Positions 1 through 22,719 of a stretch of 64,000 nt of DNA are shown one piece after another. The DNA lies in the IMG/VR virus record IMGVR_UViG_3300037471_001733, positions 22,201-86,200 of that record; one strand, written 5' to 3'. Each line of letters begins with the position of its first letter. Position 1 is the first letter of the stretch. The notes beneath the pieces are model-generated. The model was not told the DNA's origin and did not search any database. It was given only the letters and a program-made list of their open reading frames with translations. Source of the stretch: a virus. Lineage: Duplodnaviria; Heunggongvirae; Uroviricota; Caudoviricetes. The position numbers were made by a program, and so were the translations under genes.

Positions 1-110
1 ACGCCGCCGGCAGGAACTGCCCACGACATGACAGGGAAAAGCACCTGCGCGGGGGCATCGCCGGCACCCTCAATGGATACAGGGCCGACAACAACGGCTT
101 GAAGGGTCAT
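1..110 (-). CDS. hypothetical phage structural protein, N-terminal part only (gene continues left of window)
   Basis: ATG at 110 on minus strand directly downstream of the 117..650 gene, open to window edge; co-oriented with morphogenesis operon. Confidence 0.3.
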   Translation of the reverse strand, partial: MTLQAVVVGPVSIEGAGDAPAQVLFPVMSWAVPAGG

Positions 111-116
111 GGCTGC

Positions 117-650
117 TCAGCTAATTGATGCGACCGTGCCGTCGCTGTTGTAGGTCCACGTCTGCAGCGTCACGCTGCCGCTCGTGACGGTGGAGACTTT
201 CTTTTTGCCGTTAACGGTGGTGTAGTTGACCGTGTAGGTCACGCCGTTGACGGTGTACGTCGCAACGGATTTGTCCGAGTTGTACGTATAGGTTGCGCCG
301 CTATTGATGATCCCCAGCAGCTTCAAATCGGCGGCATTGGTCGTCACCGAGAACCGCTTGGTGCCAGCTGAGAAATTGACCGGCAGCGTGGCGCTGCTAC
401 CGGACTGAGGCGATGTGCGCTCAAACGTATCGCCGCCGAGATACGTTCCCTCGCCGGTCTCCCACTGTCCGGTCGGCTGGTAGTTGGCATCCACGGCCTC
501 ATAGCGGTACGGGATGCGCGCGTTTACCGCAGCAACCGATTGCAGCGTGCGACGGCCCGGGAAAGGCGTCGTGGGGGACAGCGTGACGTTGCCAGTGCCG
601 GTACTTGTGCTCGTCTGAGCCACCGCGTCATGGAATTCCTTGATCGGCAT
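117..650 (-). CDS. Thr/Ser/Gly-rich structural protein (neck/tail-proximal component)
   Basis: 177 aa ORF immediately after head-closure gene; beta-rich T/S/N/G composition typical of virion proteins. Confidence 0.45.
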   Translation of the reverse strand: MPIKEFHDAVAQTSTSTGTGNVTLSPTTPFPGRRTLQSVAAVNARIPYRYEAVDANYQPTGQWETGEGTYLGGDTFERTSPQSGSSATLPVNFSAGTKRFSVTTNAADLKLLGIINSGATYTYNSDKSVATYTVNGVTYTVNYTTVNGKKKVSTVTSGSVTLQTWTYNSDGTVASIS

Positions 651-654
651 GTGT

Positions 655-1017
655 TCAGCTCTTCAGGTTCGTGTTCTCACAAGCCAGGTCGATGAACGCC
701 CTGTCGGAAGTCGGCATGACGGCGCGGATGTCGTAAGGCCTGCCGTCAATGAGCAATCGCATCCCGGCGTCAATACCGGTGCGATGTCGGATGCGCACGG
801 ACGCGCGCACCGTGGAGAGATCTGCGCCGCCCTTCACAGCCTCAAGGCCGTTGACGTGACGCACGTCAGCCCAAAGCCGCGCGATCTCGGTCCAATCGCC
901 GACGACCTCCTGGCCGAAGTCGTCCTTTCCGCTGGGACGCTGTTGCAACGTCACCCGGAAGTTGAAGGCGCCGGCACCCATTAGCCGTAGACCTTGAATG
1001 GTTCCAGCAGTCCGCAC
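655..1017 (-). CDS. head closure / head-tail joining protein (Phage_H_T_join-like)
   Basis: 120 aa; size, position after connector and motif pattern (W..I..LWA.V....G.E.......ST....R.R.R) resemble HK97 gp7/SPP1 gp16-type head-tail joining proteins. Confidence 0.55.
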   Translation of the reverse strand: MRTAGTIQGLRLMGAGAFNFRVTLQQRPSGKDDFGQEVVGDWTEIARLWADVRHVNGLEAVKGGADLSTVRASVRIRHRTGIDAGMRLLIDGRPYDIRAVMPTSDRAFIDLACENTNLKS

Positions 1018-1550
1018 AGATACGGCAGCGCCGTCATCTGCTTGCCTGCAACAGCCTCACGGTTCGCATAGAAGGCGCCGACGTGCAGCAAGATCCACTG
1101 TCGAATGGACTGCGGCACATCTGCGGGGCTGGACCCGAAACCGGCGACGTAGCGCACGCGCACCGTGTTGATTTCGGCGCGCGTCGTCGGCCATGCCTTC
1201 TCGAAGGCTGGCACTAGGTATGCCGGCGACACGTCGTTGCTGTTGTCTAGAACGTAGTCCGCAGGGTCCAGCGTGGCTAGCACGCCGTCCTCATCCACGT
1301 ACTGCAGCGACTCGACGCCCAGCACCCTGGGCCACTCCAGGCGCAGCGCCTCGCCGAATGCGTCCGTCGTCATCTGCCACGTTGTGCTGATGAGCGTGCG
1401 CTGCATCTGGCCTTCGGCAAGTTGCCGAGCGGCGGTTATGAGGCCGCCTATCAGCAAGTCCTCTTCGTCGTGATCGACTCGAAGGTGCAGCTTTGCCTCT
1501 GCGACGCTCACCGGTTCGGTGGTCGCATCCACGAGCTTTACGGTTGACAT
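981..1550 (-). CDS. gp6-like head-tail connector (Phage_connect_1 family)
   Basis: 189 aa; N-terminal 'AEAKLHLRVDHDEEDLLIGGLITAARQLAEGQMQRTLI' is the hallmark of HK97 gp6-like connector proteins. Confidence 0.6.
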   Translation of the reverse strand: MSTVKLVDATTEPVSVAEAKLHLRVDHDEEDLLIGGLITAARQLAEGQMQRTLISTTWQMTTDAFGEALRLEWPRVLGVESLQYVDEDGVLATLDPADYVLDNSNDVSPAYLVPAFEKAWPTTRAEINTVRVRYVAGFGSSPADVPQSIRQWILLHVGAFYANREAVAGKQMTALPYLCGLLEPFKVYG

Positions 1551-1553
1551 GCG

Positions 1554-3239
1554 CTACCTTCTTGGACGCTTCGTGTCGTTCAGACGTGGCGCGAAGCCGC
1601 TGCCGCTCGGAGCGCGGCGATATACCTGCGTCGTGTAGACATAAGCCGACAGTGCCGACTGCTGCGTCGCAGCACGCACTACCACTGCACTCAGAGGCGC
1701 CGAGGCAGAGGCTGCATTGACCACGACGGCCGTGACCGGAACGCTGGCGTTCTGAGCAACCTGCACGATCGTGCTCAGGTCTATCGACGTGCTCACGGGG
1801 TGGCTGGCGTCGATGTAGGCGCTCAGGCCAGAAACAGCCTCTGGCTGGCTCAGAACCCCGACACTGAGACCCGCGCTGCGGGTCATGGTGTCAAGCACCG
1901 CAGCACTGACATCAGCAGCCGCCGTGACGCTGACGGCCTCCATGACCATCAGCGACAAGCCGGCCTGCGTCGACTGTGCCGCCGCGATCACGACGTCAAG
2001 CGCCGTCTCCACCGCCTGCTCAACACTCAGTGCCGCACTCAGCGCGGCCTCGACGGCTTGGGTGACCGATACAGGAACTGACAGCTCTGCCTGGAGCAGC
2101 ATCGGCACGTTGATGCAGACATCCAGCGCTGCCGACGTGACCGGCTGATCAAGAACCGCTACCGAGACCTCGGCAAAAGCTTCAACGGGCGTTTCAATCG
2201 CCGCCGACATCTCCACCGTCAACTCGGGGATGGAGTGGATCTGCAGCGACAGATCGGCCGCTAGGGTGTTGCTGAAGAGCACACCGACGCTGAAGGGGAA
2301 ACTTACCTCCGCGTTGGACACCCGGCTGAAAACCGGCATGCCAACCTGCTCGTGCGCGTAAGTCGCCGCCCAGCCGATGTCGGCCGACCAGGCCAGCGGC
2401 AGCCCTTCGTCATAGAACGGGGTGCCAGGCGTCTGCGGCGGCACCGCACCGAGGCCGCCGAGTTCCAGCACTGCGAGACTGCGGAAGCCGGCGTCCTGTC
2501 GGATGTAGACGCTCAGCCCAGTGTTGGCTGAACGCGCCTCCAGCACTGCTGCGGACAACAGCACCTCTGCCGAGCGCGGCTCGTACACGCTGACCGACAG
2601 CGCTGCATCCAGCGAGGCGCTGCGCTGGTTGAACGCCGGCTGCACACCAAGGGGCTGGTATGCATAGATCGCCGACCAGCCGATGTCCGAGGCCCACGCT
2701 TGCGGAAGGCCCTCATCGTTGGCCGGAACCCGCGGCGTCTGCGGCGGCGCTGCTGAGATGCCGCCGGCTTCAAGTAGCGCCAGGCCGCGGAAACCGCTGG
2801 CCGTGGTGACGATCTGCGCGCTCAGTTCGGCGCTGTTCGTGCGCGCGGCCTGCACCGGCGCCGACAGCGGCGCCGACACAGAGCCGGCCTGCTGGACCGC
2901 TACGGACAGCGCCGCATCAGCCTTGGAGACCGGGACGCTGATTGCGCTAAGGCCGCCAGCCTCCAGCAACGCCAGGCCACGGAAACCGCCTTGCCGAATG
3001 TAGACGCTCAGCGGCGCGCTGAGGGTCACGCCCGTGCGCGGCGCGCTGATGCCGCCCAGCTCCAACAGCGCAACACTGCGCCAGCCGCCGTCCAGACGTA
3101 CCAGCGCGCTCAGCGGCGCGCTGGCCGTGGGCTTTGTGCTGACGGCTACCGAGAGCCCAGCCGAGGTGGTGCGCCCGGGGCCGAGCGCACTGACGCCACC
3201 CAGCTCTGGTAGCGCCAGCGAGCGAAAACCGCCCGCCAC
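1554..3239 (-). CDS. 561-aa tandem-repeat protein (repeat unit F-R-x-L-A-L-L-E-x-G-G-x-S-A ... DEGLPxAW..DIGW), unknown function
   Basis: continuous ORF with at least 5 copies of the FRxLALLExGG motif and two longer ~110-aa repeats; Ala/Ser/Val/Gly-rich. Confidence 0.5.
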   Translation of the reverse strand: MAGGFRSLALPELGGVSALGPGRTTSAGLSVAVSTKPTASAPLSALVRLDGGWRSVALLELGGISAPRTGVTLSAPLSVYIRQGGFRGLALLEAGGLSAISVPVSKADAALSVAVQQAGSVSAPLSAPVQAARTNSAELSAQIVTTASGFRGLALLEAGGISAAPPQTPRVPANDEGLPQAWASDIGWSAIYAYQPLGVQPAFNQRSASLDAALSVSVYEPRSAEVLLSAAVLEARSANTGLSVYIRQDAGFRSLAVLELGGLGAVPPQTPGTPFYDEGLPLAWSADIGWAATYAHEQVGMPVFSRVSNAEVSFPFSVGVLFSNTLAADLSLQIHSIPELTVEMSAAIETPVEAFAEVSVAVLDQPVTSAALDVCINVPMLLQAELSVPVSVTQAVEAALSAALSVEQAVETALDVVIAAAQSTQAGLSLMVMEAVSVTAAADVSAAVLDTMTRSAGLSVGVLSQPEAVSGLSAYIDASHPVSTSIDLSTIVQVAQNASVPVTAVVVNAASASAPLSAVVVRAATQQSALSAYVYTTQVYRRAPSGSGFAPRLNDTKRPRR

Positions 3240-3250
3240 AGTGGGCTACC

Positions 3251-3727
3251 TCAGGCGGCGCCGACGATGGGCACGGCCGCCGCGTCGGTGGTCAACGTCT
3301 GGGTGTACTGAGTCGTGGAGCCATCGGTCTTCTTGACCGTCAGCGTCGCGCCGGAAATGCTGAAGTCAGCGCGCAGGCCGGTGGTCTCAAGCCACTCGGT
3401 GCCTCCCACCAAGCTCTCGTACACGTTCGACGGAACGACCATGTAGTCATGCCACACGGGCAGCGCACCGGTTTCGTTCACTGCCACGCGCAAGCGGCCG
3501 AGAGTACCGGTGTCGGTGGCATTGATGGCCACGCTGTAGTAGCCGTTCTCCATGTGCGTTGCGGTAGTCGTTTCCGACTTTTGCGCGAAGGCTGCGGCGT
3601 TCTTGGACAGGCGGATCTTTGCTTGAGTCAGCGACAGAGCAGTCTCGGCCGTGAAACCATCGGTGCTGTCAACAAACGGACCGAGCACCAGCGTGGCGGC
3701 CGTGGATTGCTTGAGAAGAGTGCTCAT
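3251..3727 (-). CDS. hypothetical virion-associated protein
   Basis: 158 aa ORF, 4-nt overlap with upstream gene, T/A/S-rich. Confidence 0.4.
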   Translation of the reverse strand: MSTLLKQSTAATLVLGPFVDSTDGFTAETALSLTQAKIRLSKNAAAFAQKSETTTATHMENGYYSVAINATDTGTLGRLRVAVNETGALPVWHDYMVVPSNVYESLVGGTEWLETTGLRADFSISGATLTVKKTDGSTTQYTQTLTTDAAAVPIVGAA

Positions 3728-4455
3728 TGCGCGGACCTCAGTCGGAATTGATGCATGGAACGAGGGGCCTGTGACTGGCTGCTGCCGGAGCCGAGAACTT
3801 CGATGGCGGCCAGCGTCCAGGTCTGTGAAGCGGGGGCCGTCATGCCAATCGCGTAGGTGCCAGTGGCGCCTGAATCGGCGTGGTAGCCGTGGTACACGCA
3901 GTACTCGTTGGCCAGTGTGTCGTTGTTCTGCGCAACGGCAGCAGTGCGCTGCGTGAACGTCCCGGCATTGCTGCGGTATGTCTGCGATGTCAACGCAGTG
4001 GCCGCACGGTCGCCGATGAACATCACCGCCGCCGAGTTGGCCCCGGTGGTCGTCAAGTTGACGGACGGAGCCGTGCCGGTACCGGAGCCAGAGACAACGG
4101 CACCGACGCCGCCAGCACTGCGGAACTGGTACGCCGTCGCGCCGAACACGATGCCATCGTCTCCTTCAGTGCCAGCGCCGCGCGAGACCGAGATCGTCAC
4201 GGACGCTGCCGTGGACGCAGTGGCGGTCCAGATGTAGAGCTCAGCGTGCGACGAGTCGACCGCGACGTCCGCGCGTTGCGTGTACGTGTTCGTCGCGCTG
4301 TCGCTAACGACTAGGCCGTCAATGTGCGATTTCAGGGTGCCAATGACGACGATCAGGTCGCCAACCTGCGTCGTGAGCGACATGGTCAGCGCGCTGCCGA
4401 AGGCCTGGGCCCATGTGCTCGTGTTTACGCTGGTGACAAAGGTTGGTGCTGCCAT
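3724..4455 (-). CDS. hypothetical Thr/Ser/Ala-rich protein
   Basis: 243 aa ORF tightly packed in operon. Confidence 0.45.
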   Translation of the reverse strand: MAAPTFVTSVNTSTWAQAFGSALTMSLTTQVGDLIVVIGTLKSHIDGLVVSDSATNTYTQRADVAVDSSHAELYIWTATASTAASVTISVSRGAGTEGDDGIVFGATAYQFRSAGGVGAVVSGSGTGTAPSVNLTTTGANSAAVMFIGDRAATALTSQTYRSNAGTFTQRTAAVAQNNDTLANEYCVYHGYHADSGATGTYAIGMTAPASQTWTLAAIEVLGSGSSQSQAPRSMHQFRLRSAQ

Positions 4456-4457
4456 GG

Positions 4458-5933
4458 TCAGGTTCTCTGGTAAGCGCCGCGGGTCCAGTTGCCAGCCACG
4501 CGCGGGACGCCATCCATGTCGATGTCGTACGGCGCCGCCAAGTCGATGCCGGCCGCAAAGCTGGCGGTGCTGGCGATGTGGTAATCGGCGCCGGCGTAGT
4601 TCTTGAAGATGGACGTCGGCACGCTGAAAATTGCGTTCGTTCCGGAGCCGCTGTAACTCGTGTTCGAAAACGCGTTATGCGACACCACTGAACCGCTTCC
4701 GGCCGTGATGGAGCCGCCGCTACCGATCCAGAGGTTGTTGCGCACGGTGTTGCCGCTGCCGTCCGGGAACTGGATGCCGGCGTTTCCTTCGAGGCCGCGG
4801 ATGAACGTGTTGTTGACGATCACGCAGCCAGTGCCGTTGCCGCCGTTGGTCGGGTTGCCCAGGAAGCCGATGGCGGCATCGCCGACATAGAACGTGTCGA
4901 AGACATTGCCGTACACGAAGATCGCGGGCTTGCGGCTCTGCGAGCGGTTGACGGCCACGGCGATGAGCGCGGTGCCGCCGAGCCCAGACTGGTAGCTGTT
5001 GCGCCAGACGTTGTGCCGAATGACGGTGTCGAACACCGAGAAATACACGTTGACGATTTCGCCGTGGTGCGTGCCGTTGCTCCACGCGTTCTCGCAGGCG
5101 TTGTATTCGATCACGCAGCCATCGGTCTGACGGATGAAGAAGACGTTGCTGCTGCGGTTTATGTAGTTGCGACTGAAGACGATTCCCGTACCCTGAATGT
5201 CGTTCGAGTCTGTATCGAACGTGTACGGCCGGTAGTTGCTGTCGGTCTGCGGGCCAATGCCGTAGCAGTAGCAGCGCGTGATGGTGACGTTGTTGACGGC
5301 TGTGCCGCCGAAGCGGATGTTCTGGCCGCGGGCGTTGCCGCCGGGGCCGGTGGTCGTTCCGTTGCCGCCGGACGTCGAGTGGTCGATGCGGATGCCGTAG
5401 CTGTCGCCGTCGAACCAGTTCAACTCGTTGCGCGTGCCGCCGTCAATGATCCAGTTGCTCGTGTTGATGGTGATCGGTTCGAGCTGGCTGGTGAAGTACG
5501 CCTGGCCGGTGCCGAAGGAATCTGACCAGCCCTGGTTGGTGCCGTGATCCGAGATAGTGGCCTTCTTGATCGTGATGTAGAGCGATCCGTTCGTGGCCGT
5601 GCTCAGCGTGCGCGTGGTGTAGGTACCAGACTTCAGGTAGTACGTGAATCCGCGCTGAAAATTGACTGTGCTCCAGGGCGCCACGTTGTTCCAGTCATCC
5701 CCGGATTGGTCACCAGAGGGCAGCGGACCAACGTACTTGGCATTCGTCGGCGCCTGCGCCTGCTGATCGATCTGCATTGACAGGCCGGCAGATAGAAGCC
5801 GCTGGTACCGCAATGCGAGGGAAAGCGGGCCCGACGCAATGGCGGACGCCGGCTGCGCAAACGACTCCGATGGTCGCTTGCGCTGCGGTCGCCCCATGCC
5901 GGCGCGCACTGCAATGGGCCTGCTGTACGCCAT
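4458..5933 (-). CDS. right-handed parallel beta-helix (pectate-lyase fold) protein, tailspike/depolymerase-like
   Basis: 491 aa; repeated N-x-x-I/V-x-x-N and NNxF/NNxW coils (GNVFDT.., CVIVNNTFIRG.., GNTVRNNLWIG.., VVSHNAFSN..) characteristic of pectin-lyase-fold beta-helix repeats. Confidence 0.6.
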   Translation of the reverse strand: MAYSRPIAVRAGMGRPQRKRPSESFAQPASAIASGPLSLALRYQRLLSAGLSMQIDQQAQAPTNAKYVGPLPSGDQSGDDWNNVAPWSTVNFQRGFTYYLKSGTYTTRTLSTATNGSLYITIKKATISDHGTNQGWSDSFGTGQAYFTSQLEPITINTSNWIIDGGTRNELNWFDGDSYGIRIDHSTSGGNGTTTGPGGNARGQNIRFGGTAVNNVTITRCYCYGIGPQTDSNYRPYTFDTDSNDIQGTGIVFSRNYINRSSNVFFIRQTDGCVIEYNACENAWSNGTHHGEIVNVYFSVFDTVIRHNVWRNSYQSGLGGTALIAVAVNRSQSRKPAIFVYGNVFDTFYVGDAAIGFLGNPTNGGNGTGCVIVNNTFIRGLEGNAGIQFPDGSGNTVRNNLWIGSGGSITAGSGSVVSHNAFSNTSYSGSGTNAIFSVPTSIFKNYAGADYHIASTASFAAGIDLAAPYDIDMDGVPRVAGNWTRGAYQRT

Positions 5934-5936
5934 GAC

Positions 5937-6380
5937 TCAGCCGTCGATCTCTTCGATCGCCAGGTTGATCGTCACGTTGCCCGTGCCGCTGGCACTGCGG
6001 ATGCTGACCTGGCCGCTGACAGGCACCGGGAACTCCCAGCCGGGCGCGGCGACGTACTTGTCGATGCCGCCGTTGGCGTTGGGGCCCATGCGCCACAGGA
6101 TTGCGCCGTCCAGCGTCGGGGCTGCGGCCCAGGTCGTATAGACGCTGAAGGACGCCGCTGCGCTGGACGGGTTCAGCTTGCTGGGCGTGATCGCGCCGCC
6201 GGGCGTCGTGCCTCCGGAACTGCGCTGCACCAGGATTTCGTTGACGGCCGATGCCGTGTCCATCCCTTTGATGTCGATGACGGTGATGCGCAACGGCTTG
6301 GTGGAACTGGCGACGATGGTGAGCAGGTCGGCCGTCGTGCTGAGCGTGGTGCGGGCACGCGAAACTGAGAAGAGAGGCAT
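5937..6380 (-). CDS. hypothetical structural protein
   Basis: 147 aa ORF, 4-nt overlap with the beta-helix gene, S/T/G-rich. Confidence 0.45.
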   Translation of the reverse strand: MPLFSVSRARTTLSTTADLLTIVASSTKPLRITVIDIKGMDTASAVNEILVQRSSGGTTPGGAITPSKLNPSSAAASFSVYTTWAAAPTLDGAILWRMGPNANGGIDKYVAAPGWEFPVPVSGQVSIRSASGTGNVTINLAIEEIDG

Positions 6381-6398
6381 TGCAGGTTCTCCAGAAGA

Positions 6399-6650
6399 TC
6401 AGGGCTGCAGGTCCTGGCGAGACACCACGACCGCCCCGCTTGCGCTATCCACGTAGACACGCACGCCGGCCAGTTCGACCACGACCCACTCGACGTTCGA
6501 CTGAGCCTCCGTCCCGACATCCCTGATGCCGCGGCGGCGGAAGATCGCGCCTTCGGTGTCATGGAGCGCGACACGGACGGAGCCGTTGGACGCTGCGCGC
6601 ATGCCGCTCTGTGCGTCTGCGTCGATTTCGAAGGGGATGGGCTGGGTCAT
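6399..6650 (-). CDS. small hypothetical protein
   Basis: 83 aa ORF between terminator hairpin and the 147 aa gene. Confidence 0.35.
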   Translation of the reverse strand: MTQPIPFEIDADAQSGMRAASNGSVRVALHDTEGAIFRRRGIRDVGTEAQSNVEWVVVELAGVRVYVDSASGAVVVSRQDLQP

Positions 6651-6663
6651 GAGGTGTTGGCGC

Positions 6664-6686
6664 GAAAAAGCCGCCTCGTGGGCGGC
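6664..6686 (-). terminator. rho-independent terminator-like hairpin (GCCGCC-CACGA-GGCGGC + U-run) after the 162-aa gene
   Basis: perfect 6-bp GC stem, T-run on minus strand (A-run 6665-6669 on plus). Confidence 0.5.
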
Positions 6687-6727
6687 TTGTTAGGTGATCC
6701 GTATCTGAGAGCGCTATTAGTTGCGCC

Positions 6728-7216
6728 TCAGACTTCATCCCAGGAAAAGTAGACGCTGTCACCTTGCGCGAGGCCGCCCGTCGCAGTCGACTGCACTTCG
6801 CACATCAGGACCAAGTGGTCGCCCTTTTCGCCAGTGCTCGTGTACGGGCCGGCGCCAAGACTCAGCGCGGAGCCGGACGTGTAGCCAAAGAAGTTGTTGT
6901 AGCCGGTGGTAGCCGTGGCCTCGGCCGGCGTGGCGTAGGTGGTCACGGCCTTTGCCCACAGCAGAACACCGGTGCCCAGGCTGTTGGTGCCGTCGGAGTA
7001 CGCCTTGATGCCGGTGATCTGCGAGTACGTGCCGCCGGTCACCTCCAGGCGCAACCACTTCTCATACGAGAAATCGCTGCCGCTGGTCGGCTTGACCATC
7101 GGGTTGTTCAGATCGACGGCGCTGTTGTCCGCATTTTTGAACCGGATGCCACTGGCCGCGTCCGTCGCGGTTGCACCGGCCCCATTTTTTTGCACGATGC
7201 GAGTCGTTGCGGCCAT
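6728..7216 (-). CDS. hypothetical structural protein (possible decoration/fibre subunit)
   Basis: 162 aa ORF with GAGGAGG RBS, bracketed by two terminator hairpins, T/G/A-rich. Confidence 0.5.
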   Translation of the reverse strand: MAATTRIVQKNGAGATATDAASGIRFKNADNSAVDLNNPMVKPTSGSDFSYEKWLRLEVTGGTYSQITGIKAYSDGTNSLGTGVLLWAKAVTTYATPAEATATTGYNNFFGYTSGSALSLGAGPYTSTGEKGDHLVLMCEVQSTATGGLAQGDSVYFSWDEV

Positions 7217-7226
7217 GTGGCCTCCT

Positions 7227-7252
7227 CAAAAAGAAAAGCCGCCCGAAGGCGG
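7227..7252 (-). terminator. rho-independent terminator (GCCGCC-TTCG-GGCGGC + UUUUCUUUUU) after the 145-aa gene
   Basis: GC stem with tetraloop followed by T-rich run on the minus strand. Confidence 0.55.
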
Positions 7253-7276
7253 CTTGATGGTTGCAAGTGAAGCGGC

Positions 7277-7714
7277 TTAGGCCGGCGTGCTAGCCGGGTG
7301 GCCCTTGATCACGTTCACGGCGATGGGCGTGCCAGCGCCGTGGGTGCCGCTGAAATCAGCGGTGACCTTCAGGTAACGGCGTTCGCCGATGTAGGCCACC
7401 TTGGCGACGGTGGCCGCAGCGTGAGCAGCGGTCAGCGAGCGCACGATGCCGCCGGTGCCCACGCTGGAGTCAGCGTTGGTCAGAAGGCGCACGTCATCAC
7501 TGGTCACGGCGGTGTACGTGGTGTCGTCCTTCGAGTGAGTCAGCAGGAACTCGATCTTGTTGGACGTGGTGAACGTGATGCCGCCGACGCCGACACCGAT
7601 GGAGACAACGGCGCTGTCGAAGCCCTTGAGATCAATGGCAGAGGAGGTCGTGTCGCTGGACAGCGTGGCGTTGAGCGCCGGCACGATGGAGATGTTGTTA
7701 GCGAGGTCTCGCAT
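7277..7714 (-). CDS. hypothetical major structural/decoration-like protein
   Basis: 145 aa ORF directly after the major capsid gene and followed by a strong terminator (pattern of a highly expressed gene). Confidence 0.5.
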   Translation of the reverse strand: MRDLANNISIVPALNATLSSDTTSSAIDLKGFDSAVVSIGVGVGGITFTTSNKIEFLLTHSKDDTTYTAVTSDDVRLLTNADSSVGTGGIVRSLTAAHAAATVAKVAYIGERRYLKVTADFSGTHGAGTPIAVNVIKGHPASTPA

Positions 7715-7785
7715 GACAATTCCTTTGGAAGCCTGGGTGAAGAAAGGCCTGTCAGTGCAGGCCTTTTTCAGTGGTCAGTCGTGGA

Positions 7786-9033
7786 TCAGGACGCGGAAAT
7801 TTTGAGCTTCTTCATCGCGTCGCTCTGACGCACGCCGCCACCGACGCGCTTGCGGGCGCGGTACACCACGAGGCCGTTGTCGGCTTCGGTGATGTAATCG
7901 GCCTGGAAGCCCAGGCCGATGCGATCAACGATGGTGTATGCGCGCTTGAAGTCACCCCACAGCACCGGGTAGGCGCTGGCCGCGATGTCCGGAAGGTCAG
8001 GGAACTCAACGTACGGAGCGCCCAAGATCGTGTTCGCCACGGCGTTGGCGAAGCCAGGGGTCCAGAGGTAGTTGCCTTGGCCGTCCTTAAGCTTGCGGAT
8101 GTCACGGATGGTCTTGCGGTTCAGCGCGAACATCGCGTTGGCAGCGTAGGCCGTCTTCAGCTCGAACTGCAGGTTGATCAGGCCGTCAGACGTGATCTTG
8201 GTAGCGTCGCCGCTGACCACCTCACCGATGCCAGAGGCCACCAGCAGGCCCTCCATTTGCTGAGCGGCGGAGCCAACGCCGTTGATGGACTCGGCGCCTT
8301 CCTTCACGGCCATCTGCTCGGCGACTTCCATGCGCAGCTCGCCAAGGAGGTCGTAGTCCGAATCCTCCAACATCTGTTGCGACACGCGGTTGCGCGCGAA
8401 CATTTCCGGGGCCGTGATCTCGCCCATCCCATACTTGGGATCGGTCGTGTCCGTACGGGTCTCGATTTCACCGACGCGCTTGGCGCTGCCGGTGCCGACA
8501 CGCTTGGGCCACTTGTACGAGTGGCCGCCGATAATGCGCACGGTGGCGAGTCGACGGATGGGCGACTGCTCCACGATGTCCTTGAGGATCGCGCGCTCCA
8601 GATCCGGCGGGGCAAGCAGGTAGCCGGCGGACTGGTCGTCGCCCTTCACCAGAGACGCCATGTGCGTCTTGATGACCTGCATGTCCTCCAGCGAGCGGGC
8701 CTCATGGCGGGTGCGCATCACGCGGTTGAACGCGGCTTGCAGCTTGGCGTTCTCGGCGGCGGAGTCGGCAGCGGTGGAGCCGGGGCGCTGCAGCATGGTC
8801 TGGACTTGATCCAGTTGCTCCTGCATGGCCTTCGCAGCATTCTGCTGGGCCAGCAGTTGCTGGTTCATGTTCTCGTAGCGATCCAGCGTATCGCTGATCG
8901 CCTCGACCTTGGCAGTCAGGTCGCCAACGGCCTTGCCGTCAGCCTTGGCCGAGATGAGCTTGTCGTTGTGCTCACGCAGTTGCGTGACGGCTTCCATTAC
9001 TTCCTGGATGCCATCATTGGTGATGTTGGGCAT
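7786..9033 (-). CDS. major capsid protein, HK97 family
   Basis: 415 aa; N-terminal coiled-coil delta-domain then 'SAGYLLAPPDLERAILKDIVEQSPIRRLATV' HK97-fold signature; position after portal/protease. Confidence 0.85.
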   Translation of the reverse strand: MPNITNDGIQEVMEAVTQLREHNDKLISAKADGKAVGDLTAKVEAISDTLDRYENMNQQLLAQQNAAKAMQEQLDQVQTMLQRPGSTAADSAAENAKLQAAFNRVMRTRHEARSLEDMQVIKTHMASLVKGDDQSAGYLLAPPDLERAILKDIVEQSPIRRLATVRIIGGHSYKWPKRVGTGSAKRVGEIETRTDTTDPKYGMGEITAPEMFARNRVSQQMLEDSDYDLLGELRMEVAEQMAVKEGAESINGVGSAAQQMEGLLVASGIGEVVSGDATKITSDGLINLQFELKTAYAANAMFALNRKTIRDIRKLKDGQGNYLWTPGFANAVANTILGAPYVEFPDLPDIAASAYPVLWGDFKRAYTIVDRIGLGFQADYITEADNGLVVYRARKRVGGGVRQSDAMKKLKISAS

Positions 9034-9051
9034 TTGGATTCCTACAGACGT

Positions 9052-9074
9052 AAAAAAGCCCGCTCGGGGCGGGC
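9052..9074 (-). other. stable stem-loop (GCCCGC-UCGGG-GCGGGC + U6) between protease and capsid genes, immediately upstream of capsid RBS
   Basis: seen in sequence; attenuator/processing hairpin candidate. Confidence 0.35.
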
Positions 9075-9099
9075 TTCGTTGGGCTTGGGGACGGTTTGG

Positions 9100-10182
9100 C
9101 TACTTGCTGATGAGGCTCAGGATGTGGGCCTTCAGGTTCGCCAGCTCGGTTGCGCTTTGCTCGTCACGAGCAGGCGCGGCCGGAGCCGCAGGTGCGGCAG
9201 CGGCGGGTTCCCGAGACTCGTCGCGAGGCCCGGTGTGCAGCGCGGCCTTGGCCAGTGCGATGACGCACTTGGCCTCGGCCGCAGAAAGGCCAACCGCATC
9301 ACGCAGTTGGCGCTCAAGGATGCGGACCTCAGGCGTGCCGTCGTCGTCGCCGGCAGGCACGAGGTCTTGCGGGGTGTTCTTGAAGAAGGGCAGCATGGCC
9401 GAGCGCGCATGCGTCAGCGCGGCCTTCTTCTCCTTCTTCTTGGCCGGCACCATCGTGTCGGCGAATCCTTTGTCCACGGCGTCCTGGCCGCGGAACCACG
9501 TTTCGGCGTCAACCCACGAGGCGATTTCGGCGCGGTCGCCACCGGTGCGCGCGACGTAGATGTCGATGAGGCCGGCTTCCAGCGTGTCCAGCACGTCGGC
9601 TTCCTTGCGCAGGGCCTTGGCGTTGCCGGCGAGAATCGTCCACGGCGCGTGGATCATGAAGTTCGCGCCTTCAGCGATGCGGATCTCGTCGCCGGCCATC
9701 GCAATTACGGAAGCGATGCTGGCGGCAATGCCATCGACGTGCACGATGATCTTGGCCTTGTGCGTGGCCAGCGCGTTGTAGATGCTGACGCCGTCGAACA
9801 CGGACCCGCCTGGCGAGTTGATGTGTACGTGCAGCTCATCAGCATCCAGCGCGGCGAGTTCGCGCACTGTGTCCTCGGCATTAACGCCGCCGTCCCAGTA
9901 GCCGCCGATGTCGCCGTATACAAACAGCTTCGGCGCTTCGCCTTCGTCGGCGGCCAAGCGCAGGTGGCCAGGGCCCAGCGCGCGCGGCGCCAGATTCATT
10001 GCCCGCTCGGGCAGGCCGGCGAGATTGATGACGGGTTTGGTCATTGCGGCCGTCCCTTCCTCATTGCTTTCTTGTTCCTCGCCCAACTCGGAGAGGACTG
10101 CGGCCAGCGACACCTGAGCGTCGCGGATGCGAGATTCGTTGCGGGCGCTCAGCACGCGCCCGGCGTTCAGACGTTGGCCCAT
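9100..10182 (-). CDS. prohead protease (ClpP/S14-like) fused to C-terminal scaffold-like domain
   Basis: 360 aa; 'INSPGGSVFDGVSIYNAL...HVDGIAASIASVIAMAGDEIRIAEGANFMIHAPW' ClpP-type serine protease core; Ala/Pro/Glu-rich C-terminus. Confidence 0.8.
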   Translation of the reverse strand: MGQRLNAGRVLSARNESRIRDAQVSLAAVLSELGEEQESNEEGTAAMTKPVINLAGLPERAMNLAPRALGPGHLRLAADEGEAPKLFVYGDIGGYWDGGVNAEDTVRELAALDADELHVHINSPGGSVFDGVSIYNALATHKAKIIVHVDGIAASIASVIAMAGDEIRIAEGANFMIHAPWTILAGNAKALRKEADVLDTLEAGLIDIYVARTGGDRAEIASWVDAETWFRGQDAVDKGFADTMVPAKKKEKKAALTHARSAMLPFFKNTPQDLVPAGDDDGTPEVRILERQLRDAVGLSAAEAKCVIALAKAALHTGPRDESREPAAAAPAAPAAPARDEQSATELANLKAHILSLISK

Positions 10183-13513: not shown

Positions 13514-13955
13514 GAACCTTGGACCTCGCGGCCGGCGTCAGCCCGAACTCGACCAGCCACGCCTTGAAGCGCCGGTCGGCATCGGCCAGCATGGCCACCG
13601 CCGGGTTCGCTTTGATGCTGCGGTCGCCCTGCGTGTTCGTTGTTTCGTAGGTAGGGCCGTCCTGGTTCACCAGTTCCTGATACCGCAGGATCTCGGCGTA
13701 CACGGCGCAGCCTCTCTCAAGGGCGTAGGCATCGGCCTCGGTTAGCACGCCCATCCGATCCAGCAGCACAGACATGCGGCCCCAGGCAACCTTGGCCTCG
13801 TCGGACAAGTGGCTGGGGCAACTAGGTATCTCGCGGCGTGGTTTGGGCTCGCTCTTGTTGAGCGCGCGCCTTCCCGGGTTGCCTGTAACTATTTTTAAGT
13901 GGCTCGGTTTTGGCCTGCGCCCCGCCATATCTCTATTCCTTGACTGGCCAGCCAT
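13455..13955 (-). CDS. terminase small subunit, P27 family
   Basis: 166 aa; 'KPSHLKIVTGNPGRRALN' N-terminus typical of P27-family TerS; precedes TerL. Confidence 0.7.
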   Translation of the reverse strand: MAGQSRNRDMAGRRPKPSHLKIVTGNPGRRALNKSEPKPRREIPSCPSHLSDEAKVAWGRMSVLLDRMGVLTEADAYALERGCAVYAEILRYQELVNQDGPTYETTNTQGDRSIKANPAVAMLADADRRFKAWLVEFGLTPAARSKVHVQNADDDQKEDHLQEFFG

Positions 13956-14214
13956 CCACCCCGATCACCGGCCGAACTCGATGACCTAGATCTCGCGCCG
14001 TTTTGTCACGGTGACAGGGGGTACATAGCCCCTGAGCCTGGCCCGGGTCTTCGTGGAAGTCCTTGCCGCCGTTGACTAGCGCGACTTTGTGGTCCAACTG
14101 AGTTGCGGCAGCAAGTCGGCCATGGCGTGAGCACTCAGCACAAAGCGGGTTCAGCCGCAAGTAGTAGTCGCGGAACCGCTGCAGCGGGCGGCCACGCAAG
14201 CGATCAGTGGCCAT
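13933..14214 (-). CDS. HNH endonuclease (terminase-associated)
   Basis: 93 aa; CxxC ... DHKVAL..GG ... CxxCH HNH motif; directly upstream of TerS. Confidence 0.7.
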   Translation of the reverse strand: MATDRLRGRPLQRFRDYYLRLNPLCAECSRHGRLAAATQLDHKVALVNGGKDFHEDPGQAQGLCTPCHRDKTARDLGHRVRPVIGVDGWPVKE

Positions 14215-14552: not shown

Positions 14553-15449
14553 CTATAACCCCAACTGCAGTTGACCAAGAGACTTGCTTCCCTTGGACCG
14601 GTTGCACCCAAAGCACTCGCACTGCGTGTTGCTATAGCTGTGTGGACCTCCATCGCGCAGGCTGACAACGTGACCAAGCTCCGGTGCGCCCTCAATCCTC
14701 TTGCCCATCTTCGACCTCGGCGTCTTAATGCCGCAAATCTTGCAGCGCCAGCCGTCGCGCTCAAAGACAGACAGCTTGTCCACCTTCTCGTACTCGCAGC
14801 CGAACTTTCTGGCGCGACGCCGATGCGTGGTGCCGCTAGTGGCTCTGTAACGGTAGCTCAGCTGACAGGCTATCGAGCAGTACTTTTGGCGCAGGTCGCC
14901 ATAGTCCGGCGTGAACGCAACTTCGCAGAAGCCGCACTTGCGAGGCGACCGGTCGCGGCTACGCTCTTGCTTCTTCCGATTGTAAACCTTGCTCCTGCAT
15001 TTGCTGCTACAGAAGTTCGCATCCGGCATCTTGGCCATGAAGTCGCGCCCGCAGGACGGGCTGGCGCAGACCCTGGCATAGCGCAGCTTATTCTGGCCGC
15101 GCTCCTTTTTCTCCGGCGCTGGAACGCACTCATAGCAGAACTTGCGCGGCTTGCCGTTCTTAAATAGTGGCTTTGGGTGGCGGCAGCCGTTTTCATTCCG
15201 GGTCCTGCACTCGTCGGAGCAATGACTGCGGCGCAGCTTCGTCGGCTTGAAGGGCATTCCACAGTAGGCGCATAACCGCGGCGGTTTCGGAGGCACGGGC
15301 GGATTCTTCCGTGGTCGTCCAGCGCCAGGACGGCGGCCGCCAGAGTTTGGACGCGGGCCACCGCGCTTTGAACGCGACGCCTCGACCAGTGCGCATAGCG
15401 CGCCTTTGCAGCCGCCAACAGACAGCCGCCTATACTCGCCTTCAACCAT
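14553..15449 (-). CDS. multi-zinc-ribbon protein with C-terminal HNH endonuclease domain
   Basis: 298 aa; at least 6 CxxC pairs, C-terminal 'ELGHVVSLRDGG...CECFGCNRSKGSK' HNH motif; AGGAAG RBS. Confidence 0.65.
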   Translation of the reverse strand: MVEGEYRRLSVGGCKGALCALVEASRSKRGGPRPNSGGRRPGAGRPRKNPPVPPKPPRLCAYCGMPFKPTKLRRSHCSDECRTRNENGCRHPKPLFKNGKPRKFCYECVPAPEKKERGQNKLRYARVCASPSCGRDFMAKMPDANFCSSKCRSKVYNRKKQERSRDRSPRKCGFCEVAFTPDYGDLRQKYCSIACQLSYRYRATSGTTHRRRARKFGCEYEKVDKLSVFERDGWRCKICGIKTPRSKMGKRIEGAPELGHVVSLRDGGPHSYSNTQCECFGCNRSKGSKSLGQLQLGL

Positions 15450-19944: not shown

Positions 19945-20340
19945 ATGGGAGCAGCAGCAGAACACCGGGGCAATGCCCTGATCCGCAGGCAGGCCGGCGC
20001 AGCGCATGCCGCGCGCCAAGCCATCGAGGACGCAGCGCGCGCCGCGCAGGTGGCCGAGGACTGCAACGAGTTTGCCCGCCAAGCGTGGGCGTATCTGCTC
20101 GACCCTTCCGGCCTGCGGCAACCCGCAGTGGAGCGCGCAAAGACTCGGCGCGGCTGGGCTAAGCGCCATGCGGAACTCAGTGCCGCGCATTGCGCATGGG
20201 TTGATGCGGACCATCGCAACGCCATGGCCTACCTTAGCGCCTGCATCCGCCGCGCGAAAGCCGCGCATGCGCTACTCACATTTGCGCTGGGCGGCTGGAC
20301 GATCCCGGATCACATTGAAGTGCCGCGCGCTGCGGCTTGA
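19945..20340 (+). CDS. hypothetical protein
   Basis: 131 aa, AGGAG RBS; ends in TGACCCCTTCC copy 2 (20338-20348). Confidence 0.5.
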   Translation: MGAAAEHRGNALIRRQAGAAHAARQAIEDAARAAQVAEDCNEFARQAWAYLLDPSGLRQPAVERAKTRRGWAKRHAELSAAHCAWVDADHRNAMAYLSACIRRAKAAHALLTFALGGWTIPDHIEVPRAAA

Positions 20341-20453
20341 CCCCTTCCGGCGCACTCGCAAGGGTGCGCATTGCGATGCAGCCACGCGGAAGCATCGCAA
20401 TGCGCCAGCGCGCATAACGGCGCCGTCCCGGCTTGAGGCGGCAGGAGATTCAG

Positions 20454-22262
20454 ATGTCAGCACAAGACTTGATTGTTAGGATCAACGCAGCCGCCCAGGT
20501 GGCCCCGGAGCAACTGCCCAAAGGGGCGCAGCCGCGCGACCACATGATTGCCTTTGAGTACACCGACGCCCACGGCACGCGCGGCTGCATGCGCATCCTG
20601 AACACCCGGGCGCGGCTGCTGGCCTTCGCTGAGCAGGTGCGGAAGAACGCGGCAGCATTCGACGGCAAGCCGCGCAGCAAGCCCGCCGGGCCGCGCAAGA
20701 TTGCCGGCGCATCCCCGCTTTCCACGGCGCGCGCACTGCTCAAGGATGGCGCGCGGGTTGAAGCCCTCGCAGCGCTTGAGGCGCGCGGCGGGGAGGTGTT
20801 TTTCGGCGCCGCTGGCGTGCCTGTGCTGCATCAGGTTGCACAGCGCGTGGAGCACGAGGGCCGCCGCTGGGTTGTCACGCGCTGCGCCGTTGATGGTCTC
20901 ATCTACCTCATTCACGAGGCGTCCGGGCTGTCAGCAGGCGGCAAGGGCTTGCCTGAGATGCGCAGCATTGCGGATGCCCTGGCGCGGCTTGAGCTCGTGC
21001 ACCGGGACGAGGCGGAAAACGGCTACCGGCAGCGAATGATTGCTGCGATCGAGCAAGCGGCGGATTACGACCAGCAGGCGGCGCGCGCGGCTTTCGAGGC
21101 GTGCGATGGTCTCAAGAGCAAGGATGCCGCGCCGGTGGCTCAGGAAGCGTACCAGCAGGCGCGCGCGCTGTCGGCGGCGCAGGTGGCGCCCGATGTCGAG
21201 CCGGCAGTAGATGCAGACCCCTCCCCGGTGGAAAGCGAAGCCGAGGCGGCACCCCCTGTAGCGGAAACGCCTGCGGCAGCTGACACCCCTGCAGCGGAAA
21301 TCGAGTCCAGCGCGCCGGCGGTTGCGCCAGCATCCCCTCCGGCGGATTCACAGGCAGGCGCTGCACCCCCTGCGATGGAAAGCGCGCAGCCTGCGCCGCT
21401 TGCCACCGCGCCAGGCCGATCGGATGCGCTCATCGCGCGGGCCATCGCTTGGGTTGCCGTAGTCTGGGGAACCGCCAGCGTGCCGAGCGTTGCGGACTAC
21501 CGCGCCGGCCGGTGCGATGACACATTCCCGTGGGCGGGCGGCAGCCGCGCCGCCGGCTATCTGACATGGGCCGACCTCATTGGCGAGTGCATGGCCGCGC
21601 TGGAGCGCGACGACAGCGCCGACCAGGCGGCACGAGACGCCGCACTGCAACCACCGACCCCCATCCGTAGGAAAGGCCCGCGACAACATGAGCAGCACAC
21701 CCCATCCCGTGCAACCCGCAGTGCCAACCGGCCGCGAGTGGTGGACCCGCGGGCTGCTCGACTGGCACGCCGAGGCGCTGCACGCCGCCCAGGAGATCGC
21801 CGCGCTGCGCGAATCACTGGCTGCGGAGCGCGCAATGGTCCGCGAGCTGCAGGAGGCGCTCGCTGCCCGCCGGCAGGCCGCTTGACCCCTTCCCGGGGAA
21901 TCACGGCGCCACAAGCTTGCCGCCCCTGGCGCGACGCCAGCGAAACCCGAGACTGCACCCATAAAAACCTGGAGCACAGCATGACCTACACCGAAGCCAT
22001 CCAAGCCCTGCGCGACGCTATTGCGCAGGCCCCGAAGGGTGAAAAGCTGCAAGCCTTCCAAGCCAAGCGGGAGAAGATAATAGGGGCAATGCCCAAGGTG
22101 GAAATCTGTGGCGGCGAGCAGTGCATCCGCTATCCCAAGGGCTACCGCTTTGACTGCGGTCGCGAGGTCCACACGGACTGGATGTGGCAACCGTTTGCCA
22201 GCGAGGAAATCGCCATGCGGCCTGGCAACCTGCCGTACATCCTGCGCATGCCGGCTGCCTGA
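20454..22262 (+). CDS. iteron-containing ORF (candidate replication-initiator-like protein); 3' third is probably read-through overlapping two separately translated small genes
   Basis: ATG 20454 with AGGAG RBS; no in-frame stop until 22262; central P/A/E-rich linker encoded by iterons; Arg-rich junk-like translation 21650-21980. Confidence 0.4.
   Translation: MSAQDLIVRINAAAQVAPEQLPKGAQPRDHMIAFEYTDAHGTRGCMRILNTRARLLAFAEQVRKNAAAFDGKPRSKPAGPRKIAGASPLSTARALLKDGARVEALAALEARGGEVFFGAAGVPVLHQVAQRVEHEGRRWVVTRCAVDGLIYLIHEASGLSAGGKGLPEMRSIADALARLELVHRDEAENGYRQRMIAAIEQAADYDQQAARAAFEACDGLKSKDAAPVAQEAYQQARALSAAQVAPDVEPAVDADPSPVESEAEAAPPVAETPAAADTPAAEIESSAPAVAPASPPADSQAGAAPPAMESAQPAPLATAPGRSDALIARAIAWVAVVWGTASVPSVADYRAGRCDDTFPWAGGSRAAGYLTWADLIGECMAALERDDSADQAARDAALQPPTPIRRKGPRQHEQHTPSRATRSANRPRVVDPRAARLARRGAARRPGDRRAARITGCGARNGPRAAGGARCPPAGRLTPSRGITAPQACRPWRDASETRDCTHKNLEHSMTYTEAIQALRDAIAQAPKGEKLQAFQAKREKIIGAMPKVEICGGEQCIRYPKGYRFDCGREVHTDWMWQPFASEEIAMRPGNLPYILRMPAA
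21218..21385. repeat. iteron cluster B inside coding sequence: 4 repeats plus 1 degenerate copy (CCCCTCCCCGGTGGAAAGCG, CCCCCTGTAGCGGAAACGCC, CCCCTGCAGCGGAAATCG, CCCCCTGCGATGGAAAGCGC)
   Basis: 21218-21237, 21252-21270, 21286-21303, 21366-21385; degenerate 21334-21354; each encodes P-P/A-V/A-E-S/T. Confidence 0.6.
21688..21885 (+). CDS. small coiled-coil protein (65 aa), overlaps the long ORF in another frame
   Basis: AGGAAAGG RBS; ends in TGACCCCTTCC copy 3 (21883-21893). Confidence 0.45.
   Translation: MSSTPHPVQPAVPTGREWWTRGLLDWHAEALHAAQEIAALRESLAAERAMVRELQEALAARRQAA
21980..22262 (+). CDS. small Cys-containing protein (94 aa)
   Basis: internal ATG with GGAG RBS, same frame as long ORF, clean stop. 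Confidence 0.45.
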
Positions 22263-22345
22263 CGCATTGTCCGGTGGCGCAGCCTTTGGCGTTCAGCGCT
22301 ATTTGAACAAGGTGCGCGGTTTAGTTCAGGCGTACTTGAATAGCG

Positions 22346-22395
22346 CCCCCCCATGTAGTGAAAACAGGGCATCAACCCCATCCAGCGGATACAGG
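22346..22395. repeat. iteron cluster C (2 copies: CCCCCCCATGTAGTGAAAACAGGG, CCCCATCCAGCGGATACAGG)
   Basis: second copy overlaps RBS of next gene. Confidence 0.5.
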
Positions 22396-22404
22396 AGTCA
22401 AACC

Positions 22405-22695
22405 ATGGGAAGTATCAACCTCGGCCGCCACCACGTCGCCATCAGCGATCAATGGACGATCTACACCCCTGGCCTACCTGGCTGGCAGATGCTGGGCGTG
22501 ATCACCCGCAGCAAGGGTGGCGAGCAGATCACGAAGGCGCTGGCCCGCAGCCCGAAGGGCGAGCTCTGCGCGGTGCGTGGGCTGTCAGCCGAGCCGCTTG
22601 TCCAGCGAAAGGCTGAAGCGGCGCTGGCGGCTGCGATGCGCGAGGCCCATCCGGTGGAAACAGATGGCACCCATTCCGAGGGAAACAGGGCTTGA
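22405..22695 (+). CDS. hypothetical protein (96 aa) with C-terminal iteron-encoded tail
   Basis: AGGAG RBS; last 15 codons are iteron cluster D. Confidence 0.5.
   Translation: MGSINLGRHHVAISDQWTIYTPGLPGWQMLGVITRSKGGEQITKALARSPKGELCAVRGLSAEPLVQRKAEAALAAAMREAHPVETDGTHSEGNRA
22646..22690. repeat. iteron cluster D (2 copies: CCCATCCGGTGGAAACAG, CCCATTCCGAGGGAAACAGGG)
   Basis: seen in sequence. Confidence 0.5.
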
Positions 22696-22719
22696 ATATG
22701 TAGGTTAAGCGCCTACACT
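22692..22719 (+). promoter_or_regulatory. promoter/operator O3 (-35 TTGAAT, 16-nt spacer containing TGTAGGTTAAGCGCCTACA, -10 TACACT); predicted leaderless start at ATG 22726
   Basis: third TGTAG-N9-CTACA palindrome with same architecture as O1/O2; -10 ends 6 nt before ATG, no RBS. Confidence 0.5.

Follow-up and report, generated by a model that had tools for sequence, protein, structure and literature searches.

Phage depolymerases are usually sought among tail genes. The 64,000-nt stretch of phage DNA analysed here (the window) encodes a putative polysaccharide depolymerase elsewhere, as a 491-aa beta-helix protein (4458..5933; coordinates are those of the window, and all features given below lie on its minus strand) whose gene stands between capsid and connector genes. 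The ORF starts with ATG and has a third-position GC of 0.85, similar to that of real genes around it.

The minus-strand gene order begins with an HNH endonuclease (13933-14214), the small and large terminases, a 92-aa ORF, the portal and a ClpP-like prohead protease; then come the major capsid protein (MCP), ORFs of 145, 162, 83 and 147 aa, the beta-helix gene, ORFs of 243, 158 and 561 aa, the adaptor, the head-closure gene and a 177-aa ORF. The MCP (7786..9033; phrog_10, E 6.7e-67) is of HK97 type with a long N-terminal delta-like region. Directly after it lies a candidate head decoration protein, the 145-aa ORF (g145; 7277..7714; phrog_5707), whose homologues also follow the MCP in two Manatee Spring phages. 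The conserved 162-aa ORF (g162; 6728..7216; 86-94% identical in sister phages) is possibly capsid-associated, the 83-aa ORF (6399..6650; 51-79% identical in sister phages) is conserved in synteny, and the conserved 147-aa ORF directly upstream (g147; 5937..6380; 81-94% identical in sister phages) stops 3 nt before the beta-helix start. The 147-aa and 162-aa ORFs matched no family in Pfam or PHROGs, and comparison of g145, g147, g162 and the 158-aa protein (g158) with PDB sequences returned only noise. At the other end, a gp6-like head-tail adaptor of 189 aa (981..1550; PF05135 and phrog_442) starts 3 nt beyond the end of the 561-aa gene, and a head-closure protein (655..1017) is assigned from synteny, the equivalent gene of phage L001 having a PF05521 Phage_HCP match. 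The sequence-only reading had remarked on this position, upstream of the connector and head-closure genes and outside the tail-fibre genes; the position is real, and at least eight related contigs, of phages or prophages, keep it.

From the 83-aa ORF through the adaptor and closure genes to the 177-aa ORF, intergenic gaps range from -37 to +18 nt. We found no sigma-70-like promoter in positions 1-9200, and the sole strong terminator-like hairpin found, a GC hairpin with a T-run between the 145-aa and 162-aa genes (7236..7255), has an 8-bp stem with six GC pairs followed by TTCTTTTT. Given the tight gaps, the absence of a promoter in 1-9200 and the single strong hairpin after g145, we conclude that the beta-helix gene belongs to the late structural operon, and the same packing indicates that it is coupled to the low-copy connector genes. 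The interval between MCP and adaptor is the usual place of decoration and head-fibre genes, as would suit an enzymatic head fibre that decorates hexamers or vertices of the capsid and aids movement through, or retention in, host slime. However, the hairpin after g145 and the tight coupling to the low-copy adaptor gene argue against a protein made in capsomer stoichiometry. The literature on head fibres and capsid decoration yielded no direct precedent for a depolymerase of this kind.

The protein carries a ladder of xNx-aromatic/aliphatic motifs (RNY 256, YNA 278, HNV 308, GNV 343, NNT 375, NNL 400, HNA 420) spaced 20-35 residues apart. An AlphaFold2 model built on a 49-sequence alignment (mean pLDDT 85.2, pTM 0.85) folds residues ~63-490 into an unbroken stack of short strands and leaves residues 1-60 at low confidence (pLDDT <50), except for a single helix at 36-49. 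Foldseek also gave a right-handed parallel beta-helix of pectate-lyase type, and the protein shows the Asn ladder and right-handed three-sheet helix of the pectin-lyase-like superfamily. The beta-helix signature first noticed in the sequence alone is thereby borne out, and the fold prediction proposed as its check returned a beta-helix and not some other fold. A trimerisation or autochaperone C-terminus, which that reading had suggested looking for, is absent: there is no Peptidase_S74 domain or other such module, and the beta-helix body (aa 63-491; 4461..5747) ends with the motif PYDIDMDGVPR..W.RGAYQ, as do its bacterial homologues.

At the level of sequence, the protein stands apart from characterised enzymes. 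No Pfam (E<=0.01) or PHROGs model matched it, PF13229 (Beta_helix) included; tblastn against 50,697 phage genomes found no relative, such that no isolate phage genome encodes a detectable one; phmmer against all PDB sequences gave noise or nothing and hence no sequence-level tie to a characterised enzyme; and a profile of its family matched no PDB sequence at E<=10. PL9 lyases (Pel9A, 1ru4; the Bacteroides RG-lyase, 5olq) are structurally similar, but with only 15-16% identity and no profile-level match. We therefore use 'PL9-like' for the resemblance of the predicted fold to Pel9A, and not for established membership of PL9.

A search of 5.8 billion proteins yielded 58 relatives, few of them with a PF13229 match (8 of the 49 aligned homologues). 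Among them, a family of beta-helix proteins from bacterial exopolysaccharide (EPS) loci (P0003, P0007, P0015 and others) is homologous over the full length, at E 1e-96 to 1e-60 and 38-48% identity, with 81-97% of the query covered. The five distant homologues examined on long contigs (28-46% identical) all lie within bacterial Wzx/Wzy-type polysaccharide loci, next to GT2/GT4 glycosyltransferases, Wzy_C, a Polysacc_synt flippase and paired AsnB-like amidotransferases, and also DegT, GFO/IDH/MocA and acyltransferase genes. The bacterial copies start with a Sec-type signal peptide (MK..hydrophobic..A.A). The phage protein differs from them in having a basic, repeat-bearing N-terminus without a Sec signal peptide, in its head-module location and in the absence of a Wzx/Wzy cluster around it. 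The expectation of a tailspike- or depolymerase-type protein thus held for the beta-helix but not for kinship to tailspikes, the nearest relatives being signal-peptide proteins of bacterial exopolysaccharide loci. Known periplasmic depolymerases of EPS loci (RbmB of Vibrio cholerae, VexL, AlgL/AlgG-type) have no sequence relation to the phage protein, which, compared with them, has exchanged the signal peptide for a fibre-repeat adaptor; the EPS-locus family to which it belongs is uncharacterised.

The body in the window shares 48% identity with the EPS-locus protein P0003 but only 34% with its counterpart in L020, a closely related phage. A neighbour-joining tree, computed from the bodies without support values, shows those of phages scattered among bacterial ones and polyphyletic. 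We conclude that the body most likely stems from host EPS-locus enzymes. The polar residues that are invariant in the family (K124, H130, D164, H290, R306, Y341, D472 and R478) are all kept in the phage copies, as would be expected of an active enzyme, and we regard the activity as putative on this basis. The same residues bear on whether the protein might be a catalytically dead beta-helix that serves only as a polysaccharide-binding adhesin, an explanation that overlaps with others considered here. Its catalytic residues are not assignable, and binding is the role of many beta-helix proteins, such as PfbA and NosD; but since the phage copies have lost none of the polar residues that the bacterial family keeps invariant, we give a dead adhesin only a slight probability.

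Where the bacterial homologues have a signal peptide, the phage protein has a phage-specific module (aa 1-62; 5748..5933) with a basic start, GRPQRKRP. We compared the copies in phage context: those of the window, P0001/L001, P0002/L013, P0019/L016, L017 and L020, and those of two Azohydromonas prophages that share the N-terminus (A. lata NBRC 102462 and A. aeria CFCC 13393). The common N-terminus reads MAYSRP.AVRAGMGRP.R.RPSES...GPLSLALRYQRLLSAGLSMQID, and the module is 67-78% identical among phage copies, as against 37-52% for the body. It includes two in-phase copies of a 14-aa repeat, '..A.LS.x.' (aa 30-43 and 44-57; 5763..5846), which also builds the 561-aa protein encoded nearby. Scored with a position-specific matrix of the repeats of that protein, aa 44-57 reach 18.7 bits, higher than all 8257 control positions in 37 other proteins of the window, and aa 30-43, exactly 14 residues upstream, reach 6.8 bits, a score attained by two of the 8257 controls. 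On these scores we identify the two repeats as the same. The shared repeat suggests that the two proteins may co-assemble. When the N-terminal 66 aa were sought on other catalytic domains among 1.84 billion representatives, only P0001 and P0181 were returned; P0181 is an artefact, a 3085-aa tandem-repeat ORF that piles up weak 'GLPQRKRP' matches.

These properties of the N-terminus also speak to whether the enzyme is part of the virion at all. It might be a non-structural enzyme that is set free in soluble form at lysis, or a moron product acting on the lysogen's own polysaccharide, given that it has no trimerisation or autochaperone module, that its bacterial homologues are free secreted enzymes and that its N-terminus is predicted to be disordered. 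However, an enzyme without a signal peptide would be trapped in the cytoplasm of a lysogen, the conserved N-terminus holds fibre repeats common to a neighbouring protein, the gene lies inside the late structural operon with no promoter or terminator of its own, and phages keep the arrangement even where the identity of their bodies has fallen to 32%. We consider a soluble enzyme quite improbable, and a lysogenic-conversion moron is unlikely for the same absence of signal peptide, promoter and terminator and the same repeats.

The repeat protein belongs, with the beta-helix gene, to a cassette of four genes, in which the beta-helix protein is part A. Part B (3724..4455; 243 aa) has a variable body and a conserved basic C-terminal peptide, ..APRSMHQFRLRSAQ; relatives are LamG-like, the equivalent L021 gene having a weak Laminin_G_3 match. 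Part C (g158; 3251..3727), whose start overlaps the B stop (ATGA), is a highly conserved Ig-like protein of 158 aa, predicted to fold into an Ig-like beta-sandwich at the N-terminus, with a short helix and a small beta domain besides. The family of C is very large and unannotated, with 1087 matches, mostly at least 60% identical. Matches to its N-terminal ~110 residues, at 40-72% identity, lie in 77 genome loci spanning Proteobacteria, Chloroflexi, Planctomycetes, Nitrospirae, CPR bacteria and archaeal MAGs, and a tblastn search of phage genomes with g158 gave a single match, in a Microcystis phage. The ORF directly upstream of the C-domain genes has a variable body (190-714 aa), and the tail peptide hP.hM(H/N)HYR..R ends 32 of 62 such ORFs, compared with 62 of 2625 control ORFs. 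Part D (g561; 1554..3239; 561 aa) comprises ~20 copies of the 14-aa 'A.LSV.V' unit and five copies of GGFRSLALLELGGISA, and ends in the basic C-tail APRLNDTKRPRR. A homologue search with D gave only two close relatives, and neither g561 nor g147 matched any phage genome by tblastn. Further along in sister phages, an 810-aa Ig-repeat protein has the C-terminal end INHARLAKARRRP.

Comparison of sister phages shows which parts of this region change. The flanking and neighbouring genes g147, g162 and g158 are 81-94% identical across them, whereas the beta-helix gene is 92, 55, 42 or 32% identical, and gene B has a body that is either 92-95% or only ~30% identical, with its tail kept. Constant flanks around a variable, polyphyletic body read, at the level of sequence comparison, as the signature of a specificity cassette. 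Such a pattern is consistent with bodies having been exchanged time and again while the adaptor in front of them stayed constant, as is seen for receptor-binding proteins and depolymerases, and a conserved N-terminal part with an exchangeable body is a feature of classical tailspikes that the protein does have.

The likeness to tailspikes invites the explanation that the protein is an ordinary side spike of the distal tail or baseplate, merely encoded in the head module and functioning as any tailspike depolymerase. Two sister phages for which tail modules were available, L106 (whose copy of the beta-helix protein is ~91% identical to that of the window) and L108, bear on this. In both, the tape measure gene is followed by a gene for a 300-aa protein and a tailspike-type gene, with an endolysin directly after. 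The tailspike-type protein of L106 has 640 aa and a weak PF13229 match; that of L108 has 616 aa, matches phrog_4636 'tail spike' (E 1e-109) and carries a Peptidase_S74 chaperone. Since these phages have a separate tailspike after the tape measure, the beta-helix protein of the head module is an additional one and not a single, misplaced one. The canonical slot is thus already filled, and the tail tip looks minimal, with the tape measure, the 300-aa protein, the spike and the endolysin. The cassette is, moreover, translationally packed against the adaptor gene, and on other backbones it adjoins capsid or portal genes. We therefore regard a tail-tip side spike as unlikely, if still deserving of some weight.

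Those other backbones are informative in their own right. The A-B-C-D order is found again on unrelated phage backbones, with a beta-helix or a fibre-like protein in position A. In the SU10-like podophage L023, part A is a 612-aa Pect-lyase-like protein, the cassette lies between portal and capsid genes, and the 820-aa D has GGFFSLALELGAG and 14-aa repeats, motifs that it has in common with D of the window. In a DNA-polA/Thy1/RNR phage, part A is a fibre-like protein. In three loci the B-C pair comes after a Phage_capsid_4 capsid gene, and in two after an SU10 portal gene; in other viruses it comes after tape-measure or podophage internal-virion genes, which are classical tail-fibre positions. 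An unrelated siphophage, MW202897, has a double-domain SGNH carbohydrate esterase in the same slot between MCP and connector. Because the B-C pair is found in both head and tail-fibre positions, the position of the gene does not fix the position of the protein in the virion. C-type fibres may dock at the adaptor ring, where podophages carry their fibres and siphophages have their neck.

The same comparison can be read in favour of the capsid: the cassette is located beside the MCP on the three Phage_capsid_4 backbones, and between portal and MCP in the SU10-like phages. However, the C domain is present on backbones with unrelated capsid proteins, which makes a capsid-specific docking site unlikely. 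Taken with the hairpin and the adaptor coupling, this leaves an enzymatic head fibre improbable in our judgement. We also considered an internal protein, encapsulated or ejected and targeted by its basic termini; this is unlikely for a rigid 45-kDa beta-helix glycanase with no obvious role inside a capsid, and is further disfavoured by the occurrence of the same cassette on backbones with unrelated capsid and scaffold systems.

A broader proposal, which we advance only tentatively, is that the beta-helix enzyme is interchangeable cargo of an undescribed, near-universal plug-in system of tailed viruses. The conserved, ~110-residue Ig-like C would be its platform, on which variable enzymes, lectins and fibres would dock via short terminal peptides that are conserved, namely the tails of B ('hP.hM(H/N)HYR..R') and D ('APR....KRPRR') and the N-terminus of A, with placement at the head-tail junction in this siphophage. 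The C-domain spread cited for this proposal covers viruses of Proteobacteria, Chloroflexi, Planctomycetes, CPR bacteria and several archaeal lineages. If it is true, the platform would give the particle a swappable toolkit for processing glycans, mounted at the head or neck and independent of the tail-tip receptor-binding protein.

Among known systems, the lactococcal neck passage structure (NPS) of 936- and P335-group siphophages is a non-essential collar modelled at the head-tail connector, with a nearly invariant N-terminal part and exchangeable distal modules that are CBMs or beta-helices (groups D and E) (PMC6669499). The cassette is like the NPS in that it appears to be an accessory device directed at glycans, which the phage has besides the receptor-binding protein of its tail tip and which pairs a conserved N-terminal anchor with exchangeable modules. 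In contrast, the NPS is one long polypeptide (BppU-like domain, coiled coil, CBM), whereas four genes share these functions here; the host of the window phage is Gram-negative, and its body is derived from EPS-locus enzymes. Profile comparison by hhalign gave no support for homology of part C to BppU or the NPS (probability <1%). Two further comparators are Dpo7 of the staphylococcal siphophage phiIPLA7, a 'pre-neck appendage' depolymerase (PMC4658415), and phi29 gp12. The latter is a trimeric beta-helix protein on the lower collar, with a C-terminal autochaperone that is cleaved; the window protein has no such domain, no sequence similarity to gp12 and a different N-terminal anchor. Classical tailspikes (P22 gp9, HK620, Det7, CBA120 TSPs, Klebsiella depolymerases) also have the trimeric C-terminal or autochaperone domain that the window protein lacks, and they combine a folded head-binding domain with a gene in the distal-tail region, whereas the window protein combines a short repeat-peptide adaptor with a gene in the head module.

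On balance, we lean towards the view that the protein is a virion-borne accessory depolymerase with a body derived from a host EPS locus, attached through a repeat-peptide adaptor to a four-gene fibre cassette, probably at the neck. The fold, the homology, the replacement of the signal peptide, the cassette-like variability, the place in the operon and the second, canonical tailspike of sister phages are shown by the data; we infer the protein's activity and chemistry (lyase or hydrolase), its incorporation into the virion and its neck location. The PL9-like right-handed beta-helix body would supply the putative catalysis, its bacterial kin being secreted proteins of Wzx/Wzy-type exopolysaccharide or O-antigen-like loci. 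The phage copy has an adaptor of ~60 residues in place of the signal peptide, with a basic start and then the two fibre repeats of 14 residues. Most likely, the enzyme is held by this adaptor on a fibre complex of the co-transcribed B (lectin-like), C (Ig-like) and D (repeat fibre), and the complex is probably a collar or neck fibre attached close to where head and tail join. From there the enzyme may cut the host's extracellular polysaccharide, leaving the final receptor to the separate tail-tip tailspike, and exchange of the body behind the constant adaptor would retarget the phage to different polysaccharides.

The host of the phage is an Azohydromonas-like bacterium, and kinship to bacterial Wzx/Wzy exopolysaccharide loci leads to a substrate hypothesis, namely the EPS of Azohydromonas-like, floc- or slime-forming Burkholderiales. 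Of the by-products of the analysis, the pairing of the conserved Ig domain with terminal peptides is the most novel: the B-C combination of 'tail peptide + Ig domain' is abundant and unannotated across bacterial and archaeal viruses, and, should it prove to be a docking system, it would be of use in engineering phage surface display and retargeting. The beta-helix gene itself indicates that a second, host-derived polysaccharide enzyme can sit in the block of head-to-neck genes, with an adaptor system of its own, and that host-range prediction or depolymerase mining restricted to tail modules would miss such genes. It also illustrates how genes have passed repeatedly between the polysaccharide loci of hosts and the specificity cassettes of phages.

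Downstream of the putative depolymerase gene lies the gene for a 158-aa Ig-like protein (window 3251–3727, minus strand), for which no match was found in Pfam, PHROG or PDB sequences. The protein database holds 1087 relatives, and 77 homologous loci (L029–L105) encode products with 40–72% identity to its N-terminal ~110 residues. A very large number of bacterial phyla are represented among these loci, as are archaeal MAGs assigned to Altiarchaeales, Bathyarchaeia, Methanotrichaceae and Nitrososphaera. Such conservation is unusually strong for the product of a viral structural module.

The ORF directly upstream of the Ig-domain gene, which encodes 243 aa in the window, ends in a short peptide (C-terminus at window 3724–3765), and its counterparts in L029–L105 were compared with control ORFs. 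Such a peptide (for example PRSMHQFRLRR, IPVFMNHFGRLRR or IPVAMDHYRRRRP) was present in 32 of the 62 upstream ORFs, as against 62 of 2625 controls, and occurred independently of the protein body to which it was attached. A possible role for the peptide is as a tag for docking or processing.

A basic C-tail, INHARLAKARRR(P/R), was also found on a protein of 810–818 aa with SWM_repeat and Big_13 Ig-like domains and an N-terminus that may be glycosidase-like. Its gene lies between the head-closure gene and an HK97-gp10-like neck gene, both in a sister phage (L001, 8158–10590) and in one of the loci sharing the Ig-like domain (L029, 15670–18126); the window stops short of the site at which this gene would be expected. 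After the head-closure gene, the window itself carries a 177-aa ORF (117–650, minus strand) with a fibre-like N-terminus (..AVAQTSTSTGTGNVTL..); in tblastn the ORF weakly matches a gene annotated as a tail fibre in a Manatee Spring phage (31% identity, E 9e-3).

The canonical tail-tip spike is also exchanged between sister phages. In L106 (16627–18549) the spike is a 640-aa protein with a weak Beta_helix match; in L108 (16621–18471) it is a phrog_4636 tailspike of 616 aa that carries a Peptidase_S74 chaperone. In both phages an endolysin gene with a phrog_90 domain comes directly after it. In phage MW202897, an unrelated metagenomic siphophage, the slot between the major capsid protein and connector genes is occupied, as it is by the beta-helix gene in the window, by the gene for a 708-aa protein (L019, 9843–11969) with two carbohydrate-esterase domains, Lipase_GDSL_2 and SASA. 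Upstream of it is a homologue of the 145-aa gene of the window. In the window this gene is next after the capsid gene and is followed directly by a strong terminator-like hairpin (7236–7255, minus strand; AAGCCGCC-TTCG-GGCGGCTT and a T-run), which may reduce expression of all downstream genes, including the beta-helix gene.

One apparent relative of the beta-helix protein N-terminus was rejected as an artefact: P0181, a 3085-aa database 'protein' that consists of perfect tandem repeats of ~170 residues, scored E 2.5e-11 with the 66-aa query only by summing weak GLPQRKRP matches.

The remainder of the window appears to hold early and replication genes of a phage, arranged as two divergent arms. 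The plus-strand arm (45000–64000) includes RecT (50382–51374), a RecE-like exonuclease (51378–52064) and RdgC (54917–56038); the minus-strand arm (14000–44000) includes a second HNH protein (14553–15449), an SPFH/Band-7 protein (31457–32527) and an IstB/DnaC-like ATPase (40817–41650). No tRNA genes were found in the window. GC content is anomalous at 20001–24000 (0.69 at 20–22 kb and 0.58 at 22–24 kb, with a window mean of ~0.64), and a plus-strand 609-aa ORF in the GC-rich 20–22 kb stretch had no family match.

Between the Ig-domain gene and the head-tail adaptor gene, the window encodes a 561-aa protein (1554–3239, minus strand) composed of ~20 copies of a 14-residue repeat and five of GGFRSLALLELGGISA. 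Only two close homologues were found among 5.8 billion proteins, and its motifs recur in an 820-aa protein of an SU10-like podophage (L023, 10479–12941). In an Azohydromonas aeria prophage (L061, 10504–17777), the same slot is enlarged to ~7 kb and holds five genes, encoding 320, 620, 436, 147 and 870 aa, the last of which ends in a C-tail as seen in the cassette (APSG.GF.P...RPRR). This slot appears to be a hot spot for fibre-like cargo.
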